In this document: piece after piece, positions 795 to 10,037 of the stretch
Numbering within the stretch: position 1 is the first letter of the stretch
Layout of the letters: the number at the start of each line of letters is the position of its first letter
Virus record (IMG/VR): IMGVR_UViG_3300037468_000575
Span: 64,001-88,932 of that record
DNA from: a virus
Taxonomy: Duplodnaviria > Heunggongvirae > Uroviricota > Caudoviricetes
DNA: 24,932 bases
Reading direction: 5' to 3' (one strand)
Notes under the pieces: generated by a model
What the model was told of the DNA's origin: nothing
What the model saw: the letters and a program-made list of their open reading frames with translations, nothing else
The model's database searches: none
Program-made: the position numbers and the translations under genes

Positions 795-3700
795 TTATGC
801 TCGCTCCAGCATTAAACTAACAAAATATGAATTTAACAAATTTCTTGCAGATGATATTGTCGGTTCTCTAAATTTAGCATCACCCTTTTGCACAATTTCA
901 GAAATAATTGCATCTCTAGTTAGAAAGTCATCTGAAAGAGGACCCATCAATTCTGCTAGTAAATTTTGACAGTTGTAAGATATAAAACAATATGTATCTT
1001 GTTCTCCAAGCCTTTGACCACCTTCTCTTTTTTTCCCACTTGTGGGCTGTCCAGTTTTTCCTGCAACTGGCCCTGTTGATCTTCCATAGATTTTGAGATC
1101 ACCAATATGTTCCAACTTAGATACATACATATATCCTACCGGAACAGGACTTTTGGTTTTTGTATTAAACTCAGGTAATGTTAAAGTATATCCAGATTTT
1201 AACCCAAGTAACTTTAGAACCGCAATAATATTTTGATAAGGAGGAGCTTTAAAAGGTGGAATAACTAGAGGGAAAAATCCCGTCTTTTGAACTCCATCTA
1301 AAAATCTTGCAAACTCACTTGATGAAAGTTTGCTAAATCTCATTAATGCAGCAGTTGTATATTCTTTATTTTTTGAAGTATCTAGTTGTTGCAAAACAGG
1401 TTTTAGGATCGAAGCTATTTTCGTTCTATTTTTCGAAGCTAAAATATATTTCGCAAGATATTTCGATACAAGACCGCAATACATTTCAAATAACTGACCC
1501 ATATTCATTCTTCCAATTAAACCAATTGGATTAAAAATAATATCAATACGTTCTCCAAATGGAGTTCTTGGCATTAATTCTGGTTTTTCCAGAAGAGAAA
1601 TAATTCCTTTGTTTCCATATCGATTACAAAGCTTATCTCCTAAACCAATTTTTAATTCTTGTTCAATCTTAAACTTAATTAATACACCCTTGATCGTGTC
1701 CCCAGTCATAGTAAACTTCTTTGATAAATTTCTACCATATTTTTGATTTGTTTTATTAATCAATTCTTGTAAATCTGGGAATGTTTTATCAGGAACATTG
1801 GAAAATACTTCTACATCAACAATTCTACCACCAGGACTTTTTAAAACAAAATATCTTCCTGTTATATCTATATCTTCTAATTCTTCATATTGAATTAATT
1901 CTTCTAGTTCACCTACCGTTTTCTTTAATAACGGTTGTCCTTTTACTGTTGATGTTCCAACCTGTTCAATAAATATTAGTTTATCCTTAACACTTAATTC
2001 AGCTTCTGTCATTATACCATGGACTGAAGTTAACGAATCATCAGCAACTAAATCTTCATTAATTACAATGCCATCTTCAAAATTATAACCTTTATATGGC
2101 ATTAACGCAACACATAAAGTTCTTCCAAGCGAAATAGCTCCAGATGAAATACAACTTCCTTCGGCAATAATTGCCCCTTCTCTAACAGAATTTCCTGGAT
2201 TGACAGTAGGAACAAAAATACTTAAAGTATCTTTTCCACTTCCTGATTTTAAATGTACAGGTGAAATATCAACAACTGTTCTGCCAGTTTTACACCGAAT
2301 TGAAACTTTATCTTGTACAATTGTTTCTATTTTTCCATCACATGGAGATCTCTTGATAAAGTTTTCTGATAATACAGATGTTAAAATTCCTTCATATCCA
2401 GATTGTACAGCTGGAGGTGACGGATTTTTTAAAGGAACAATTTGTTTCGCTTGTTGCGAAATCATAATAACTCTGGCTCCATCATTATTTTCTAAAAATG
2501 GAACCATACAAGTTGTTGTTGATAAGATTCCACTCTTTTCCTTATCTGTTTTATCTTTAACTCCAAATAACCCTCTTGCTGAAGTAATATTAGGATCAAT
2601 GGTTAATTGTTGCGTGATTCCAATATTTTCACCTTCTGGAGTATCAAGGGGATCAAGATTCCCGAAATACGTTTCATGAATATTTCTTGCAGATGTTTGT
2701 ATAGCTCGTTTATCGGGAATTCCACTAACTGCTTTTCCTGTTGGAGAAACTCTTGTAATAGTAGCCATTTCTTCAATTGGATTGGCATATTCCATATTTA
2801 CCGCGAGTTCAGTTGTTTGAAACTCTTTTAACACTTTTGTGGAAGACATTTCAAAAATAGCTGATTCATTACCAGACAGAACTTGTTCTTTATAAATGGT
2901 ATAGGCAGCTAAGATTTGTTTTTGAATTAAAGTAACTAAAACTTCAGATGTCCTAACTCTTTGGTTTGAAATATCATTTCTATCAATGACATAACCTTCT
3001 ATAACTTTTTCAGCCATATATTTCATAATATATGGAAGATCCGTTGGTAATTGATCTGTTTTCAAAATTTGTTTAACAACTGGATCAACAATATTTCTAA
3101 CACTAGACATAATTAAGAATGTCGAATTCAATCTTCCAGTAAGTTTAATTATTAGTTTCTCAAAATATTTAGGTGAACCAAATTTTTCATTGATGTCATA
3201 AGAAAATACTTTTCCATGTATAAAAGATTGTACAAGTTGTTGTTTTAGAGCGTTATTAACATTCTTAAAAATAATATATTCTGTGTCATTTATCTTACTA
3301 AATATTTCTTGTTTGTCAGGTTTCTCCGTTGTAATTTGATACTTTAGATCATAGAGTTTCATTGATTCTTCAAAACCAAAAGCAAACGAAATTAGAATCA
3401 ACATTGGCAATCGATAAATCATAAACGTTTCTAAGTAATTTTCTCGTGCTAATTTTCTACTTACAATTCTAAAAATAGAATAAGAACTTTCAAATTTTGA
3501 CTCACCCGCAGCCGGAAATGTAATGGGTTTTTGAATGATTTGATTGATTAAGCATTTACGTTGACCACGAACTCTAAATGTTCCTGTTTTAACATCTATT
3601 TTTGGAATTTCAATATCAATTGAATGTAGCTTTCCAAATTTGTCTTTTAAGATAATTGTAATAACAACTAAATCTGATGGTTTTAATTCTTCATTATTCT

Positions 3701-4880
3701 GACTTTTATCATGTATTTGTATACTAACAAATTTTAATGGAATCTCTTGATTTTCTAACACTTGAAACGAGTTCACAATATCTTTTATTAAATTCATTTC
3801 AAAATCAAGTTGTCTTTTTTGGAATACATGAATTGGGGATTTATAATCAACCATTCTCGGTGTATCATACATAGATGTTCTAGCATCAGTTGATATAGAA
3901 ACCGCCCGTTGTGGTTTTAGTAATTGATCAGAATATGATCGATCCACAGCTTTTAAAGCTAGTCTCATTCTATCTGGCGGAACGGAAGAAGAAATTCGAT
4001 CGGCTTTTGAAAGATCATTGCTTGTCTTAAATAAAATTGATGCTGTTGTAATTCTAGCTGCATCATGTGGTTTCATTTGTCCAGTCATAATTTGATCTAA
4101 TTCATCTGGTTTGTTTTTCAAATATGATGCAACAGCATGAACCACTTTATCTTTTGTTGCTGGATTTAAGTCTTTGTCAACATTGTTAATAACATCTGTT
4201 GTTCCTTTGACAAGGTCTTCTTCCATTTCTTGTTCATCATCAATTGGTTTTACTGATCGAAGATACAAGCGAATTCGTTCAAACTTAAAGTGTTTATCTT
4301 TAATTAGAAGTCGATAACGAGCACTACCTTCTGTAAGCATTGCTAAAATCATTGTATTAAAAGGCAAGTTTTCATCTTTAAAATCTTTTAAAAAAGGAAA
4401 AATCTTTCGATCGATAAATTGATTCATATCTTTTGTTAAATCTACTGAATATATAAAAATTACATTATAGTTTGTTGTAAATGAAGCAATTGTTGTTTCA
4501 ACAAAATTCTTAATCAACATTCCAGCACGCTGTCGATAATTTCTAGGATTGTATGCTGCATCAATAGCACTGGGATATTGACTAAGATCTAAAATTAAAT
4601 TTCGTCCCTCAGGAAATTTCATTTGAGCAGAATATGGAATTAATTTGAAGTTTGTATATAGTTTCCTAAGGTCAGGTGTTAAACGAGTTCTAGGAATTCT
4701 TGTTATAGGAACAGCTACTAATCTGAAATCGATTAACCGTAAATTTAATCTTGGATAATCAATTAAAAAATTTGAGTTTTCGGAAAAATATACTAAAAGA
4801 AAAGGATTTTTTGGATCTTGTGGAAATCGTAGTCCATCTACTACGTGAGTATATTGTCTCAAATTTTTAAAAGCAATCAT
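795..4880 (-). CDS. rpoB: Phage-encoded DNA-directed RNA polymerase beta subunit with a roughly 300-aa unrecognised N-terminal extension
   Basis: Collinear beta motifs: GTFRVRGQRKCLINQ, NIHETYFGNLDPLDTPEGENIG, PFLENNDGARVIM, MPYKGYNFEDGIVI, GDKLCNRYGNKGIIS, DIIFNPIGLIGRMNMGQLFE, YMYVSKLEH...GGQRLGEQD. RBS GGAG upstream of the ATG. Confidence 0.97.
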   Translation of the reverse strand: MIAFKNLRQYTHVVDGLRFPQDPKNPFLLVYFSENSNFLIDYPRLNLRLIDFRLVAVPITRIPRTRLTPDLRKLYTNFKLIPYSAQMKFPEGRNLILDLSQYPSAIDAAYNPRNYRQRAGMLIKNFVETTIASFTTNYNVIFIYSVDLTKDMNQFIDRKIFPFLKDFKDENLPFNTMILAMLTEGSARYRLLIKDKHFKFERIRLYLRSVKPIDDEQEMEEDLVKGTTDVINNVDKDLNPATKDKVVHAVASYLKNKPDELDQIMTGQMKPHDAARITTASILFKTSNDLSKADRISSSVPPDRMRLALKAVDRSYSDQLLKPQRAVSISTDARTSMYDTPRMVDYKSPIHVFQKRQLDFEMNLIKDIVNSFQVLENQEIPLKFVSIQIHDKSQNNEELKPSDLVVITIILKDKFGKLHSIDIEIPKIDVKTGTFRVRGQRKCLINQIIQKPITFPAAGESKFESSYSIFRIVSRKLARENYLETFMIYRLPMLILISFAFGFEESMKLYDLKYQITTEKPDKQEIFSKINDTEYIIFKNVNNALKQQLVQSFIHGKVFSYDINEKFGSPKYFEKLIIKLTGRLNSTFLIMSSVRNIVDPVVKQILKTDQLPTDLPYIMKYMAEKVIEGYVIDRNDISNQRVRTSEVLVTLIQKQILAAYTIYKEQVLSGNESAIFEMSSTKVLKEFQTTELAVNMEYANPIEEMATITRVSPTGKAVSGIPDKRAIQTSARNIHETYFGNLDPLDTPEGENIGITQQLTIDPNITSARGLFGVKDKTDKEKSGILSTTTCMVPFLENNDGARVIMISQQAKQIVPLKNPSPPAVQSGYEGILTSVLSENFIKRSPCDGKIETIVQDKVSIRCKTGRTVVDISPVHLKSGSGKDTLSIFVPTVNPGNSVREGAIIAEGSCISSGAISLGRTLCVALMPYKGYNFEDGIVINEDLVADDSLTSVHGIMTEAELSVKDKLIFIEQVGTSTVKGQPLLKKTVGELEELIQYEELEDIDITGRYFVLKSPGGRIVDVEVFSNVPDKTFPDLQELINKTNQKYGRNLSKKFTMTGDTIKGVLIKFKIEQELKIGLGDKLCNRYGNKGIISLLEKPELMPRTPFGERIDIIFNPIGLIGRMNMGQLFEMYCGLVSKYLAKYILASKNRTKIASILKPVLQQLDTSKNKEYTTAALMRFSKLSSSEFARFLDGVQKTGFFPLVIPPFKAPPYQNIIAVLKLLGLKSGYTLTLPEFNTKTKSPVPVGYMYVSKLEHIGDLKIYGRSTGPVAGKTGQPTSGKKREGGQRLGEQDTYCFISYNCQNLLAELMGPLSDDFLTRDAIISEIVQKGDAKFREPTISSARNLLNSYFVSLMLERA

Positions 4881-4883
4881 CTT

Positions 4884-6944
4884 TTATCTCCGTTTGCCTG
4901 TTAATTCACCAGTAAGAACTTTTTCAAGAATACTTGGTTCATAAGGTTCGTCTGTCACAAGACCTGTTCGAATAGCCTCATTAATATTTTCGAATGCAAG
5001 TCCTTGCACAAAACTTGTATTAAAAACAATTTTCTTAATGTTAATCATTATTGGATCCCAAGTTTTTGCTAATCTAGCTGGAATACTTTGGTTGTGTCTA
5101 TCTCGTAAACAATGACTAGTTAGTACTTCTAAATGAACTAAATCCATATCAGGTGCAACCGACGGTCCATAAATATTATATAGTTTTCTGAATAGATGAT
5201 CAACATCTTTATAGATTTCTCTACCACCTAGTAATCTTTCTAAGTATTTAATTTGAGCACTGATATGTGATGCTTCAACCGGAACTTCTAACATAGTATC
5301 ATTTTCTTTATATTCAAAACTGATTTCATCTTTAGTTTTTATCATGTTATTAAAAACTTGAATCTGAACTGATTTATCTAGAATTAAATTGAACGTTATA
5401 TCTTCAAATTCCACTGTCGCTAATAAACTGTTAGACCAAACTAATGTATCTTCAATAAACAAATCAACATTGAGATGATATTCATTTGTATTAATTGTAA
5501 CCTTACAAGGTTTTCTTGTAACTAATTGATTATCCGTTTGATATAACCATCTGTCAGAAAATTCAGACTTTGGATATTCAATTAACGGATCATTGTCAAG
5601 AATTTCTTGTATAATATCAGTTTTTTCTAGTTTAACTGCTCCTCCTGTATGGAAGGTTCTCATAATTAATTGTGTTCCTCTTTCTCCAATAACTTGAGCT
5701 GCAATGATTCCCGCGTACGGACTTCTAGTTTTTTCTAACAATCTACCATAACAAGTATGACAGAGTTTTGGTGATTTACAATAAATTGGACTTCTTAAAT
5801 ACACAACATCATCGAGTTTAAAATCCGATTCTTTAAACTCTTCTAATTTAGAACCTCGTAAAATAAACCTACCTCTTAATCTTGACATCATACCTTTTGT
5901 TAATCGCAAAGACAATGTTCTGTCTGTTTTGCAATCTTTTAATTGATTATCAATTTCAATACTATTAAGAACATAAGCTAATTTTCTAGACATATATCCA
6001 GTATCAGCTGTATTTAAAACTCTATCAATAATTCCTTTTCTCGCGCCTTGGGAAGCTTTAAAATACTCTGTAGGCGTTAATCCATCAGAAAAGGATCCCT
6101 TAATTGGGGATAGCACTTTTCCAGATGGATCAGCAATAATACCTTTTGCAACTAAAATTTGAATTGGTTGATCCCATCCTTTAGTTGCGCCAGAATCAAC
6201 AAGATCATATAATCCTGTTCCTTCTAAATGTTTCTTTGTAATTTCCACCATTTTTTCTAAAAGAATCGATCCCTCTTCTGGAGTAGAGTTTCCTAGTTTT
6301 TCTTTTAATCTATAAACTTCAGGTGGGAGTTGTAAATCATCCAGAGATATACTTGGTGCCATAATTGTAGCAAATTTAAATCCTAATTTTTCTACTTTTG
6401 AAAAAATATTAATGGCTTCATCCTGACCATAAACCTCTATAATTTTTCGAATCAATTTATTTATAATTGATTTATTTACTTGACCAGGATGATATGGAAA
6501 GCTAGTTGGAAAACAAGAATTAAATAAGGCTTTTCCCATAGTTGTTGTTTGACCTCTATATCTAACAGGAATATAGGGATCAGTAGCAGTTTCTAGATCT
6601 TCATCTGTCACAGAAATAGCAGATTTTGTTAATTTAATATCCTTTGTTATTATATATAAACCAGCAGCCATTTCTTTTGTAATTGCAAAAACAACAGAAT
6701 TCATATTATCAAAGCCTTGACTTCGTAACATTTTTTCTTTTGCTTCTTCTTGGGACTCTCTAGTTATGGGATGGAATATGGCCATTGTATCCTGAACAAA
6801 TACACCGTCTGAACTTGCAAAAGTATAGTTATCTTCAACTGTAAGATCGTAACCAACGGTTTCATTTGGATCATATGTTATATCTAATTCAGAAACAGGA
6901 ATTAAAGTTAGACCTTTGTTAAGCAGATCTTGTTTAGTTAGCAT
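4884..6944 (-). CDS. rpoC: RNA polymerase beta' C-terminal fragment preceded by a 52-aa split-intein C-part (IntC)
   Basis: After residue 52 the protein reads TMAIFHPITRESQEEAK (compare E. coli [17 protein letters not shown]). It has the bridge helix GLTPTEYFKASQGARKGIIDRVLNTADTGYMSRKL, the Zn site C..RSPIYC..LCHTCYG and the trigger loop AAQVIGERGTQLIMRTFHTGG. Own RBS (AGAGGA, 6 nt upstream of ATG). Confidence 0.95.
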   Translation of the reverse strand: MLTKQDLLNKGLTLIPVSELDITYDPNETVGYDLTVEDNYTFASSDGVFVQDTMAIFHPITRESQEEAKEKMLRSQGFDNMNSVVFAITKEMAAGLYIITKDIKLTKSAISVTDEDLETATDPYIPVRYRGQTTTMGKALFNSCFPTSFPYHPGQVNKSIINKLIRKIIEVYGQDEAINIFSKVEKLGFKFATIMAPSISLDDLQLPPEVYRLKEKLGNSTPEEGSILLEKMVEITKKHLEGTGLYDLVDSGATKGWDQPIQILVAKGIIADPSGKVLSPIKGSFSDGLTPTEYFKASQGARKGIIDRVLNTADTGYMSRKLAYVLNSIEIDNQLKDCKTDRTLSLRLTKGMMSRLRGRFILRGSKLEEFKESDFKLDDVVYLRSPIYCKSPKLCHTCYGRLLEKTRSPYAGIIAAQVIGERGTQLIMRTFHTGGAVKLEKTDIIQEILDNDPLIEYPKSEFSDRWLYQTDNQLVTRKPCKVTINTNEYHLNVDLFIEDTLVWSNSLLATVEFEDITFNLILDKSVQIQVFNNMIKTKDEISFEYKENDTMLEVPVEASHISAQIKYLERLLGGREIYKDVDHLFRKLYNIYGPSVAPDMDLVHLEVLTSHCLRDRHNQSIPARLAKTWDPIMINIKKIVFNTSFVQGLAFENINEAIRTGLVTDEPYEPSILEKVLTGELTGKRR
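6789..6944 (-). other. Split intein C-terminal part (IntC, 52 aa) ending ...GVFVQD, followed by Thr+1
   Basis: Block F VGYDLTVEDNYTF and block G-like SSDGVFVQD|T. The beta' sequence resumes exactly at the Thr codon 6788-6786. Confidence 0.88.
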
Positions 6945-8015
6945 TTATATTCCTCTATTTCCATATCTTTTTTCAATAATAATTTTATACCAATTCAAAT
7001 ACCAATCTCTATTAAAATTTGCAAATGTATTACAACTTCTACAAATAGTTATTAAGTTTATTGGATGACAATTTTTTTTGTTGTAATCAATATGATGAAT
7101 AACAATATCGTTTGAATTAATTTTATTACAACATGGATTCATACACATTCTTGAATCTCGATCTAAAATCATATCTTTAAATTCTGGAAGAAAAAATAGT
7201 TCACAATATTTTGAGTAAGTTATTCCTCCTTTCCAATTTGAATTCTTTTCTCGAGAATGTTCTTGAATAAATTTAACTGTTTTAAAAATGTTAGTTTCTT
7301 GATAATTTTTTAGAAAAGTACTAATCTTTTTTTCTTTTACACTATCTAGTATTGAAACATTATCAACATGATATTTCTTTTGAACTCCTAATTTTTGCTC
7401 TTCTTTTCCTTTTTCTGACTGCCAAGGATAGTGTGTTCCATACTTAGATATACTTGTTTCTTGTTTCTTTTCTTTACATTCATCTAATTGTGAAATATTA
7501 TCAACACCATATTTTTCTTGAATTGTTTTCTTTGCAGTTTCAATATAAGCATTTTTTAGACTTCCATAATTTGAAATAGCAGTTTCTTTTTTCTTTTCTT
7601 TAATTTTTTCTAATTTTGAGATATGAGGTACGCCATATTTTTTTAAAACAGTTTCTTTTCTTTTTATGTTAGCTTTTTTTGCTACTTCTGAATCTCCATT
7701 TTTTGTTCCTGCATATCGAACACCGCATGTTGTACTGCACGTATCTGAAAAACCAAATCCATCTATTTTAAATCTTACTAAGTTTTCTTTACAAAAATGA
7801 CATTTTGGAAATTGTTCAATAGTTGTAACATCCTTTAATAAACACCAAAGTCGATCTAATAATCTGGGATTTTTATCATTTATAAACAATGTTTCTTTTT
7901 CTATAACTGTAATCCAATCTTGACGGTATCTATAAATCGTTGGACATATTTTTGATAATGATTTGTGTTGATTTAATTTGTCTTTTATATAAGTTAAAAT
8001 TTCATTTAGTTGCAT
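6945..8015 (-). CDS. Free-standing HNH-family homing endonuclease (Zn ribbon, KYG-type repeats, C-terminal HNH/HNN domain) between the two beta' halves
   Basis: C-terminal RDSRMCMNPCC...VIHHIDYNKKNCHPINLITICRSCN; N-terminal CHFC...CSTTC; about 6 repeats of K.ET..KKYGV.NISQL. Overlaps the beta'-N stop by 14 nt and its TAA abuts the beta'-C ATG. Confidence 0.85.
   Translation of the reverse strand: MQLNEILTYIKDKLNQHKSLSKICPTIYRYRQDWITVIEKETLFINDKNPRLLDRLWCLLKDVTTIEQFPKCHFCKENLVRFKIDGFGFSDTCSTTCGVRYAGTKNGDSEVAKKANIKRKETVLKKYGVPHISKLEKIKEKKKETAISNYGSLKNAYIETAKKTIQEKYGVDNISQLDECKEKKQETSISKYGTHYPWQSEKGKEEQKLGVQKKYHVDNVSILDSVKEKKISTFLKNYQETNIFKTVKFIQEHSREKNSNWKGGITYSKYCELFFLPEFKDMILDRDSRMCMNPCCNKINSNDIVIHHIDYNKKNCHPINLITICRSCNTFANFNRDWYLNWYKIIIEKRYGNRGI
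7265..7665 (-). repeat. About six degenerate 19-23-aa protein repeats (K.ET..(K/E)KYGV.NISQL..(I/C/V)KE) in the HNH endonuclease
   Basis: KRKETVLKKYGVPHISKLEKIKE / KKKETAISNYGSLKNAYIE / TAKKTIQEKYGVDNISQLDECKE / KKQETSISKYGTHYPWQSEKGKE / EQKLGVQKKYHVDNVSILDSVKE / KKISTFLKNYQETNIF. Boundaries approximate. Confidence 0.8.
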
Positions 8016-9519
8016 CTTGTATTAAATACCTGTCTTTTGAATTTTTTAAAAGTTCTTTAGGCGAAATCTTTTTAATTTGTTGATCATTTTCATCATATAC
8101 AATTAGTGAATGATCATATGAAGACCAAAAATCTTCAAATCTATTTTTTGAATCATGTATCTTATACATTTCAATATTTTCATGTTTACTATATTCTAGT
8201 ATTTGTTTTTCTTTAGTTTTTCCATCTATTATATCAATAGATTTTATAAAAAGTTTTTCTATTGGGTTGTATTTTGTAACCATTATATTATTATTTTCTT
8301 CCTTTTTAGTTAATATAAATCTTTCTTTAGAAAGAAAATCTTTAATATGACACTTTATATTTTGTTCTGTTTTTGCATAGATAATAGAACATAGGCAGCT
8401 GTCTCCATCAAAATCCGCATTAAAACCACCAACTTGTAATGTGCAAATTTGAATAGTATTTCCTCGAACTAATTTTACATAAAATGCTCGAATAGATTCT
8501 GCATGAAGAACAGGATCTCTTTTTGCTAAAACAACACGATTCATGGTTGCAACTTCTGTTTCTCTATAAAGTAATTCAAATAAAGAATCAGGAATTTTAT
8601 CATCACTTCTAATTAATTTAAATACCTTTTTTATACTATCAATAGAAAGTTCCATATTTGTAAACGACTTAATTTCATGCGCTAATAACTCTTTACTTAC
8701 TCTTCCAGAATAAAGAAGTCTATGTAAGATAAAAGGTTCAAATAAACTAATAGCCATTCGAAATGGAAGACCAATTTCATTAACCTTTAGATCAGGTCCT
8801 GGAGTAATAACCGCTCTACCAGAGAAATCGGTTCTCTTTCCGAGAATTTGAGATCTAATTAACCCATGTTTCTTCTGAATTAACGCTCTAATATAATCAT
8901 CATGTTCTATAACAGACTTTTGTACTTCATAATTTAAAAGATCAAATAAAGGTCCAGATTTAGACATAGTTTTGACATTTAATGATTTTTTCAAGATTGT
9001 GATGTAATAGTTATTTAAATTATCAATAACCCATTGACCTTTCTCATCTTGATATAAAGGTCTTTGATCTGGAGGAATTACAGGGATAATATTAACAAAT
9101 AAAGTTCCTTCTTTATTTGCTTCTTCTAGTTTCTTAATATATTTATCTCTAGAGTCAGTTCCTCCTCTAAATTTAATGGATGGAAATAACGTAATAAAAG
9201 CATTGATACCAGTGGATCCTTTATCATTTTGAACTAAGTGGTTATCCGCATCCAGACTAAAGCTTTGTTGTCCAGATAGAAATAATTCTATTCGTTTATC
9301 TAGTTGTAAGAGCAGTTTTAAAGCACTTGGGTGAACTACACTAACATTAAGATTAATATACGAAAAAGTTCTCTTTCTATTTGGAGTCTCAACTGGGCCA
9401 AAAATGACTTCTGAAAACAACCCACCTTGATGAAATTCTCCAGTACGAGTTAACATTTCTGTAGTGGTAACTGGCGTTAGTCCTTTTACGAAACTTTTCC
9501 AGTTTAAAAAATATATCAT
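8002..9519 (-). CDS. rpoC: RNA polymerase beta' N-terminal fragment (373 aa, ending in NADFDGD) fused to a 132-aa split-intein N-part (IntN)
   Basis: GLFSEVIFGP, IPVIPPDQRPL, GLIRSQILGKRTDFSGRAVITPGPDLKVNEIGLP, AKRDPVLH, GGFNADFDGD (codons 8421-8401 for NADFDGD), then non-RNAP sequence to the TGA at 8004-8002. Confidence 0.95.
   Translation of the reverse strand: MIYFLNWKSFVKGLTPVTTTEMLTRTGEFHQGGLFSEVIFGPVETPNRKRTFSYINLNVSVVHPSALKLLLQLDKRIELFLSGQQSFSLDADNHLVQNDKGSTGINAFITLFPSIKFRGGTDSRDKYIKKLEEANKEGTLFVNIIPVIPPDQRPLYQDEKGQWVIDNLNNYYITILKKSLNVKTMSKSGPLFDLLNYEVQKSVIEHDDYIRALIQKKHGLIRSQILGKRTDFSGRAVITPGPDLKVNEIGLPFRMAISLFEPFILHRLLYSGRVSKELLAHEIKSFTNMELSIDSIKKVFKLIRSDDKIPDSLFELLYRETEVATMNRVVLAKRDPVLHAESIRAFYVKLVRGNTIQICTLQVGGFNADFDGDSCLCSIIYAKTEQNIKCHIKDFLSKERFILTKKEENNNIMVTKYNPIEKLFIKSIDIIDGKTKEKQILEYSKHENIEMYKIHDSKNRFEDFWSSYDHSLIVYDENDQQIKKISPKELLKNSKDRYLIQDATK
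8005..8400 (-). other. Split intein N-terminal part (IntN, 132 aa) starting SCLCSIIYAK
   Basis: Starts with Ser/Cys directly after NADFDGD and contains a block B-like FWSSYDHSLIVYD (S-x-x-H in place of T-x-x-H). Its length is typical of IntN fragments. Block A match is weak. Confidence 0.8.
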
Positions 9520-9521
9520 AA

Positions 9522-9980
9522 TTAGTCTAATCCATATAAATAGTTTTGAAGTTTGGCCATGATTTTTTGTTGAAAGTCTGATTTTTGTCTATCGTCAACC
9601 CTCGCTTGTTCGTCAGTCCCTTTCGAATGCATAGCATATATATCGCCAATTTTTGTCATAACTTCTTCAAGTTCAGGACCATTAAACTGTCCAGATTGAT
9701 TCATTTTTTGAGCTAGTTTTAATGAAAATTTTATCATAAATGGATCCTGAAGCCCCATGCGATTACAAATTGGAAAGAAAGGAATTTCGCGTCCTCTGCC
9801 TTTAAATGTTAAATAACATTCAGGATTACGTCCATATAATTCATCCTGTAATTGTTTACTTCGCAGAAATTCCAATTTCTTTCCTTCATCTTCTTCATAC
9901 CCAATTGACTCACTAGCTTTTCGCAGAAGTTCATTCAATTTAGCAAAAGTCTTTTCATTAATTGCTTGTTTCTTTGACAT
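9522..9980 (-). CDS. Hypothetical protein (152 aa) coupled to beta'-N
   Basis: Strong RBS AGGAGG upstream; stop lies 2 nt before the beta'-N ATG. Confidence 0.8.
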   Translation of the reverse strand: MSKKQAINEKTFAKLNELLRKASESIGYEEDEGKKLEFLRSKQLQDELYGRNPECYLTFKGRGREIPFFPICNRMGLQDPFMIKFSLKLAQKMNQSGQFNGPELEEVMTKIGDIYAMHSKGTDEQARVDDRQKSDFQQKIMAKLQNYLYGLD

Positions 9981-10037
9981 AACTATATCCTCCTATTGGA
10001 GATCCTTATTTTATAATTTGTTCTAGATAGATATCCT

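Follow-up and report, generated by a model that had tools for sequence, protein, structure and literature searches.

Fractured genes, in which the halves of a split intein interrupt an enzyme gene, have been described for gp41, DnaE, NrdJ, NrdA, IMPDH, and other marine-metagenome loci (Dassa et al. 2009, PMC2677866). Inteins are also known in multisubunit RNA polymerases (RNAPs), including those of Mja rPol A', Mja and Nph rPol A'', and eukaryotic or viral RPB2, RPA2, and RPC2 (PMC1635734), together with 14 euryarchaeal inteins assigned to COG0086 (PMC4760082). These RNAP inteins are contiguous and reside in archaeal A'/A'' subunits, second-largest eukaryotic subunits, a eukaryotic virus remnant, and chloroplast genes (PMC1635734, PMC4760082). 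Two chemical classes are relevant as well: inteins with an atypical C-terminal Gln or Asp (Amitai, Dassa, and Pietrokovski 2004; Pab PolII; CIV RNR; reviewed in PMC4031507), and cysteine-less split inteins, which are scarce and wanted for protein engineering (PMC13014065). The locus considered here lies in a 24,932-nt stretch of DNA (the window; positions 64,001 to 88,932 of the IMG/VR viral record IMGVR_UViG_3300037468_000575), where the gene for the RNAP beta' subunit is broken at its catalytic NADFDGD motif. The interpretation favored, with a probability of roughly 80%, is that a naturally split intein fractures the beta' of one of two multisubunit RNAPs in an uncultured jumbo phage and that protein trans-splicing restores a beta' of 1007 amino acids (aa), the active site most likely being stitched together after translation. 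The literature search found no paper on a phage intein at the RNAP NADFDGD site, nor any combining the terms "intein" and "NADFDGD", in agreement with an earlier reading of the window from its sequence alone (the sequence-only reading), which knew of no such case at an RNAP active site. Papers on jumbo phages, Jug-phages, and crAss phages place inteins or introns in different genes, or treat RNAP disruption only broadly, and do not cover the NADFDGD site.

The fractured gene is encoded on the minus strand by two open reading frames (ORFs) separated by a third. The beta'-N ORF (9519..8002; 505 aa; TGA stop at 8004..8002) begins with the N-extein, corresponding to beta' residues 1-373 (8401..9519; Pfam PF00623, E=2e-23), which is collinear with an intein-less orthologue (P0131) and ends with the Mg-binding motif NADFDGD (residues 367-373; 8421..8401). 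It continues into the 132-aa N-terminal intein half, IntN (8002..8400, TGA included), which starts with SCLCS, with Ser1 at 8400..8398, and carries the block B sequence S-Y-D-H-S-L (...SSYDHSLIV...). A free-standing ORF for an HNH homing endonuclease (356 aa; 8015..6945) follows, sharing 14 nt (8002-8015) with the beta'-N ORF; its TAA abuts the ATG of the beta'-C ORF, and it shares the frame of the C-terminal intein half, IntC, with the TAA alone between them. The beta'-C ORF (6944..4884; 686 aa) has its own ATG, with the Shine-Dalgarno sequence AGAGGA 8 nt upstream. Its first 52 aa constitute IntC (6789..6944), an acidic segment with a net charge of -8 that contains blocks F (GYDLTVED) and G (DGVFVQD) and ends ...GYDLTVEDNYTF...GVFVQD, the final residues being Gln-Asp. 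The 634-aa C-extein follows, starting with TMAIFHP (4884..6788; Pfam PF04983 and PF04998), with the +1 Thr at 6788..6786. The fracture point is located between the last Asp of the NADFDGD loop and the next Thr, and the intein itself is split after a block N4-like region (...ISPKELL...RYLIQ) into halves of 132 and 52 aa with separate translation signals, as in fractured genes. Together, the exteins carry Rpb1 domains 2, 3, and 5 (PF00623, E as above; PF04983, E=5e-7; PF04998, E=7e-25), the domain content of a multisubunit RNAP beta'. The sequence-only reading had described a 132-aa tail after NADFDGD, a 356-aa HNH gene with a 14-nt overlap, and a 52-aa start before TMAIFHP, and every one of these details is correct; its likening of the layout to the arrangement of Dassa et al. 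2009, namely two ORFs split at an endonuclease insertion point with a free-standing endonuclease ORF, is also borne out.

The predicted excision site of the two extra segments is precise. Joined exteins of 373 and 634 residues give 1007 aa, as the same reading had calculated, and this product aligns with the 1007-aa protein of the intein-less P0131 over residues 1-1007 at 89.7% identity with 0 gaps, which demonstrates an in-frame insertion that is missing from orthologues and seamless after removal. A second intein-less orthologue (P0135) is likewise exactly 1007 aa long, the predicted length. The empty site of P0131 reads GAT GGT GAC|ACA ATG GCT, many other intein-less alleles show NADFDGD[T/Q/A]MA at the same position, and the operon of P0131 matches that of the window, with a 153-aa gene followed by beta' and then a 1361-aa beta. 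The interrupted layout is also authentic at the level of assembly, a point on which the earlier reading had asked for verification. In the source run, the whole stretch lies in a single contig at a depth of ~40, and near-identical contigs from two other studies (X2 records 10 and 13; X3 record 20) span both junctions without indels. Moreover, 37 of the 120 best beta'-N-related protein clusters have a tail of ~130 aa after NADFDGD; these 37 stem from independent assemblies, with identities of 43-84%. The stop/start arrangement as such recurs in dozens of diverged relatives.

The identity of the two segments as halves of a HINT-fold intein is supported by structure modeling and profile comparison. 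The AlphaFold (AF2) model of IntN has a pLDDT of 92.6, and inteins make up all of its top 10 Foldseek matches in PDB (probability 1.00, TMq 0.53-0.65), led by the Aes123 PolB1 split intein (9hth). A profile built from 37 IntN tails, compared with PDB sequences, ranked two inteins highest, Pab PolII (E=0.016) and Aes123 PolB1, each with its block B aligned in register. Further evidence comes from L011, a natural contiguous allele in which IntN and IntC share one frame as a 203-aa mini-intein at the same site. Its model (pLDDT 86.9) has 37 PDB matches at E<=1e-3, with TMt up to 0.77; all of its top 50 PDB matches are inteins or bacterial intein-like (BIL) domains, the best again being the Aes123 PolB1 split intein (E=1.3e-7). 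Among the contiguous allelic relatives, a Pfam match to LAGLIDADG_3 was obtained, along with a weak match to PF14890 that lies under the cut-off. The halves are also predicted to pair: the modeled IntN+IntC complex is intertwined, with ~240 contacts, and scores an ipSAE of 0.86 versus 0.00 for the best of three controls, passing a mark that solved complexes reach in 58 of 80 cases and mismatched pairs in 2 of 110. Contact agreement between runs is at least 96%, and partner pLDDT is at least 84. One alignment (A4) was set aside owing to misaligned trimmed fragments at the C-end, and A3 was folded in its place. The proposal of the sequence-only reading that both segments are intein parts is thereby upheld by fold searches, the PDB profile search, the predicted complex for which it had called, and the contiguous inteins at the same site, while the scoring with intein or Hint models that it had also suggested returned no curated match from Pfam or PHROG for either segment.

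Conservation of the catalytic residues extends over a family reaching down to ~40% identity. In an alignment of 37 IntN homologues (A1), intein residue 1 is Ser in 28, Cys in 6, and Thr in 3, with Ser in the window, and residue 2 is variable. Residues S94, D96, H97, and S98 of IntN are invariant in A1, so block B consists of an invariant S-x-D-H (S-Y-D-H in the window) with the His at B:10 and Ser replacing Thr at B:7, and in the PDB matches it lines up with the block B DH of inteins. In the IntC alignment (A2, 15 sequences), the block F Asp at F:4 (D33, in GYDLTVED) is invariant, as are Q51 and D52, the terminal Gln-Asp being present in 15/15. At +1, the 14 relatives of A2 have Thr, and P0129 and L016 have Ser; every intein-bearing allele seen, fractured or contiguous, carries one of these two residues, and intein-less alleles use Gln or Ala as well. 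Such a pattern is, at the sequence level, the outcome expected from selection for splicing. An alternative register, in which the intein starts at Cys2 and the Ser is an extra extein residue, was considered and ruled out: position 1 is always Ser, Cys, or Thr, position 2 varies, and orthologues have no extra residue. The start is therefore assigned to Ser1, since residue 1 is restricted to S/C/T across the family. Relative to the closest fractured relative (L037, 84% identity), dN/dS is 0.135 for the N-extein, 0.224 for IntN, 0.098 for IntC, and 0.113 for the C-extein, values that place both intein halves, as judged from coding sequence, under purifying selection.

These observations bear on the most durable of the alternatives, according to which the intein halves do not splice and instead act as a clamp that holds beta'N and beta'C together non-covalently, yielding a two-piece beta' with an attached HINT domain. 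In jumbo phages such as phiKZ and AR9, the beta and beta' subunits of RNAPs often come in several pieces where no intein is involved. The strong predicted binding of IntN and IntC would suit a clamp, and both the Gln-Asp C-terminus and the missing penultimate His are atypical. A clamp, however, fits poorly with the family-wide retention of the nucleophiles and assisting residues (residue 1 as S/C/T, the B:10 His, the F:4 Asp, and +1 Thr or Ser), given that Gln or Ala is freely used at +1 in intein-less alleles. Furthermore, the break falls within the Mg-binding loop at the center of the enzyme, where, judging from known RNAP structures, a domain of ~184 aa should block catalysis. The unusual terminus is itself compatible with splicing: inteins with a C-terminal Asp or Gln, or without the penultimate His, are known to splice, with the terminal residue cyclizing in step 3 (PMC4031507), and Ser1/Thr+1 "cysteine-less" inteins with Aes123-type chemistry are splicing-competent (PMC13014065). 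A non-splicing clamp is thus considered unlikely.

Relatives of the locus display an allelic series at the same site. Within phages that are ~90% identical in beta', the intein-less state (L041), the split state without an endonuclease gene (L037), and the split state with one (the window) coexist. Across the wider family, contiguous mini-inteins occur in L011 and P0195, and contiguous inteins with a nested LAGLIDADG domain in P0177, P0196, P0198, and P0204; fractured alleles with an endonuclease gene include the window, L002 (with the same layout as the window), L004, and L007, and those without it include L037 and L010. The search for intein-less or contiguous alleles advised in the sequence-only reading accordingly yielded both, in L041/P0131 and in L011 and the LAGLIDADG-bearing relatives, respectively. 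In the most extreme state, the halves are dispersed: one 118-kb contig (L012/L016) encodes beta'N-IntN at ~10.4-10.8 kb on the minus strand and IntC-beta'C-beta at 88.4 kb on the plus strand, ~77 kb apart. Judging from this arrangement, read-through, frameshifting, or cis RNA splicing cannot rescue such a beta', and because the halves lie so far apart on opposite strands, protein trans-splicing is the best explanation. In terms of abundance, an exhaustive IntN profile search recovered 120 representative clusters at E<=1e-3, of which 88 reached E<=1e-10, and the IntN alignment matched 8 loci among viral contigs, where beta'N alone found no relative.

The same alleles bear on an RNA-level explanation, in which the interruption would be spliced out as a group I or group II intron carrying an HNH ORF. 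HNH genes are frequent intron passengers, and introns with HNH ORFs have been reported to disrupt the RNAP genes of AR9-like and MarsHill-like jumbo phages. In the window, however, a search of positions 4500-10000 against Rfam at E<=1 matched no family, and the 132-aa and 52-aa flanks are in-frame protein extensions with a HINT fold, retained catalytic residues, and dN/dS of 0.10-0.22. Given, in addition, that the entire intein occupies a single uninterrupted frame in other relatives and that the halves are dispersed over both strands in L012/L016, intron removal is highly improbable. Still less credible is a decaying pseudogene or an assembly or frameshift artifact in a phage that depends on a different RNAP of its own: the same contig does encode another beta', in an uninterrupted 903-aa frame, and another beta, yet extein dN/dS is 0.11-0.14, both beta' ORFs are intact with start, Shine-Dalgarno sequence, and stop, and the layout is identical across many independent assemblies, including the contigs of two other studies that cross both junctions.

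Several further observations on the series concern its limits and variants. Some relatives (L014:7000-7540, L015:6960-7480, P0142, and P0144) show an ORF boundary near the N-end of the intein, with a short N-fragment on the other piece, representing an atypical split. Many representatives recovered with the IntN profile begin at profile position 26, the beta'-C ORF starting within the N-terminal portion of the intein. When 185,579 species genomes were scanned for NADFDGD with Cys as the next residue, 11 stretches turned up, most of them chance or non-intein, and no archaeal allele was among these Cys-first sequences, to which the scan was confined. Two contigs from metagenome-assembled genomes (L031:1-739 and L028:286-1736, labeled proteobacterium and Brevefilum) carry NADFDGD, Cys, and intein-like sequence and are candidate allelic Cys1 inteins; the open frame of L031 extends 1120 aa upstream and may represent a beta-beta' fusion. 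Additional interruptions exist elsewhere in the gene. A second one is located in beta'-C near extein-C residue 443 in L004:9325-13536, P0122, P0124, and P0125-P0130, produced by further DUF7487 endonuclease genes that fracture the protein (~460-aa pieces) or by a contiguous insertion of ~385 aa matching Pfam Intein_splicing; the window is uninterrupted there. In L011:4111-6776, a separate 2.6-kb insertion lies in beta'-N between the equivalents of residues ~294 and 308 and may be another mobile element. In L008/L023:1493-2789 (IMGVR_UViG_3300033146_002768), IntC forms a 54-aa ORF, and the match to the extein picks up again from residue 33 in a different frame. A further gap of ~1 kb falls between residues 402 and 415 of extein-C; the copy is either more severely broken or host to additional elements.

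The gene between the halves is supported by sequence comparison as an HNH-type homing endonuclease. Its 356-aa product has three parts: a Cys-rich N-terminus, DUF7487 "KYG" repeats, and a C-terminal HNH nuclease. DUF7487 is recognized by Pfam (E=1.6e-15), and PHROG 3339, annotated as "homing endonuclease", matches at E=5e-13. The HNH motif with flanking Cys pairs is present (...CMNPCC...IHHIDYNKKN...NLITICRSCN), and a match to the HNH region of IscB (E=1.9e-6) covers the C-terminal 111 aa; HNH PHROGs match at E ~0.01 and Pfam HNH_3 at E=0.31 only. When the whole protein was compared with PDB sequences, weak zinc-finger-like matches to papillomavirus E6 (E=0.12) appeared and were judged to be chance. 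The gene is polymorphic among relatives, being missing in L037 (84% identity) and present in L002 (64% identity), and it is on these grounds the mobile part of the system, occupying the position in the intein where endonucleases canonically insert. The suggestion of an HNH endonuclease gene made from the sequence alone is confirmed by the Pfam, PHROG, and IscB matches and by this presence/absence pattern. RNA folding around the endonuclease start gave z=-0.14 relative to shuffled sequences, with no sequestering hairpin.

Comparison among fractured alleles also hints at how this gene comes and goes. In L037, the IntN stop directly abuts the IntC ATG and no endonuclease gene is present; its IntN tail (L037:3640-3700) ends in ...NENKGL before the stop, that of P0009 ends in ...RYGIRGL, and the window endonuclease (6945-6975; compare 8002-8030) ends in ...KRYGNRGI before its stop. 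Both the L037 and the P0009 endings resemble the C-terminus of the endonuclease, which looks like a scar of endonuclease deletion. In L007:1820-2848, IntN is fused in frame to DUF7487 and a Vsr-like nuclease (PF04480/PF18741), and a common DUF7487 DNA-binding module seems to have exchanged its nuclease domain, which is HNH in the window and Vsr-like in L007. An additional NUMOD3+HNH endonuclease gene occurs between beta' and beta in L002:10669-11538.

The fractured gene belongs to a tight operon with the order 482-aa ORF, 152-aa ORF, beta'-N, endonuclease, beta'-C, and beta, all on the minus strand. The beta gene (1361 aa; 795..4880; Pfam PF00562, E=1.7e-43, with PF04565 and PF04560) lies directly downstream in the same operon, 3 nt from beta', and this gene order recurs in L002, L037, and L041. 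The window forms the terminal 24.9 kb of an 88.9-kb contig, for which CheckV completeness is 28%; a jumbo phage of ~300 kb is deduced from this value. Contigs sharing the stretch originate from sediment and freshwater-sediment metagenomes. A second set of beta and beta' genes on the same contig is uninterrupted, comprising a 903-aa beta' frame (G000:C1:33203-33631, L035) and a 1015-aa beta frame (28499-29698, L038); two polymerases per phage are common among jumbo phages.

In the proposed mechanism, three separate polypeptides would be produced from the operon: beta'N-IntN (505 aa), the DUF7487-HNH endonuclease (356 aa), and IntC-beta'C (686 aa). In the first stage, the 132-aa IntN and the acidic 52-aa IntC would associate into a single HINT domain, and in the second, protein trans-splicing of the class-1 type would proceed. 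Ser1 would undergo an N-O acyl shift at Asp(-1), Thr+1 would attack the resulting ester, the C-terminal Asp would cyclize in place of the usual Asn and release the intein, and an O-N shift would create the peptide bond. The expected product is a seamless 1007-aa beta' with NADFDGD-TMAIFHP at the junction, and the predicted junction peptide of the spliced protein is ...NADFDGDTMAIFHPITR / ...FNADFDGDTMAIFHPITR.

Several considerations weigh against trans-splicing as the explanation. The canonical C-terminal His-Asn is absent, Gln-Asp taking its place, and the block B Thr is Ser; variant C-terminal residues can slow step 3 of splicing (PMC4031507). Pfam (E up to 10) and PHROG models match neither intein half, the sequence-only match of the IntN profile to PDB inteins is weak (the E=0.016 given above), and the high score of the IntN+IntC model may partly reflect likeness to split-intein complexes that have already been solved. 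The presence of a second RNAP set means that loss of the fractured copy is not necessarily lethal. Gene anatomy, fold, conservation, selection, polymorphism, and predicted binding of the halves are shown by the analysis, and it is from these that we infer the splicing chemistry and the spliced product. The strong purifying selection, in turn, argues that the fractured beta' is in use. The claim in the sequence-only reading that phage transcription would depend on trans-splicing therefore has to be narrowed: it probably applies to the polymerase encoded in the window, and it need not extend to the phage as a whole, which has the uninterrupted beta/beta' set.

A more speculative extension is that the intein is more than a parasite which the phage tolerates and that splicing serves as a conditional step: metal binding, assembly with beta, or separate expression timing of the halves would control when the catalytic loop forms. 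The scissile bond follows the third Mg-chelating Asp and the intein has an invariant Gln-Asp end, and loop formation could therefore be gated; the dispersed halves of L012/L016 have also been taken in this sense. Such gating is regarded as unlikely; if true, it would constitute a post-translational switch for one of the two polymerases of the phage.

Should splicing be confirmed, the locus would provide the first case, within the reach of the literature search, of a multisubunit RNAP active site that has to be completed by protein trans-splicing, and fractured genes would extend beyond DNA metabolism to transcription. At one site, all stages of the intein life cycle are found, from the empty site and the mini-intein through LAGLIDADG-bearing forms and invasion by HNH or Vsr-like genes to endonuclease loss and dispersal, making this family a good natural system for testing the origins of split inteins. 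Its many diverged natural split inteins with Ser1/Thr+1 and a terminal Asp could serve as new orthogonal tools. For annotation, pairs of beta' ORFs in jumbo-phage genomes, with "unknown" extensions of ~130 aa and ~50 aa, can now be named.

Measured against known systems, the mechanism and the layout are familiar, the host gene and the site are new, and the terminal chemistry is unusual. Like other inteins with atypical ends, the window intein lacks the penultimate His and has a non-Asn C-terminal residue that could still cyclize; it differs in belonging to a large family of naturally split inteins in which the Gln-Asp end never varies and for which Asp cyclization in trans is proposed. Known RNAP inteins similarly occupy highly conserved regions of multisubunit RNAPs near the active center, where the unspliced protein should be inactive, but they are contiguous and belong to cellular or eukaryote-virus genes, with no report of one that is split, occurs in a bacteriophage, or sits at NADFDGD. 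The Aes123 PolB1 split intein (9hth), together with the derived CL/CLm (Mootz lab, PMC13014065), is the best structural match for the IntN and L011 models and is likewise a naturally split phage intein with Ser1, a hydroxyl residue at +1, no catalytic cysteines, an IntN of ~100-130 aa, and a short IntC. In contrast, sequence identity is only ~19-20%, its host is DNA polymerase B, and its crystallized construct carries N159A, i.e., an Asn near the C-terminal end, where the family of the window ends in Gln-Asp.

The closest parallel is provided by the fractured genes of Dassa et al. Their hosts are enzymes of eight kinds that act in DNA synthesis and repair, with RNA polymerase unmentioned (PMC2677866), whereas the host here is the catalytic loop of RNAP beta'; their endonucleases are GIY-YIG or Vsr-like, whereas the window has DUF7487+HNH (although L007 combines DUF7487 with a Vsr-like nuclease); and a regulatory hairpin upstream has no counterpart found here. 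The window intein also differs in ending with Gln-Asp. In both cases, nevertheless, a split intein breaks the gene of an essential enzyme at the point where endonucleases insert, the endonuclease ORF is packed tightly between the halves, and the setting is a phage. The relatives of the window, moreover, show the endonuclease-bearing, endonuclease-lost, and dispersed stages of the stepwise model of Dassa et al., to which L007 adds an in-frame fusion of endonuclease and IntN.

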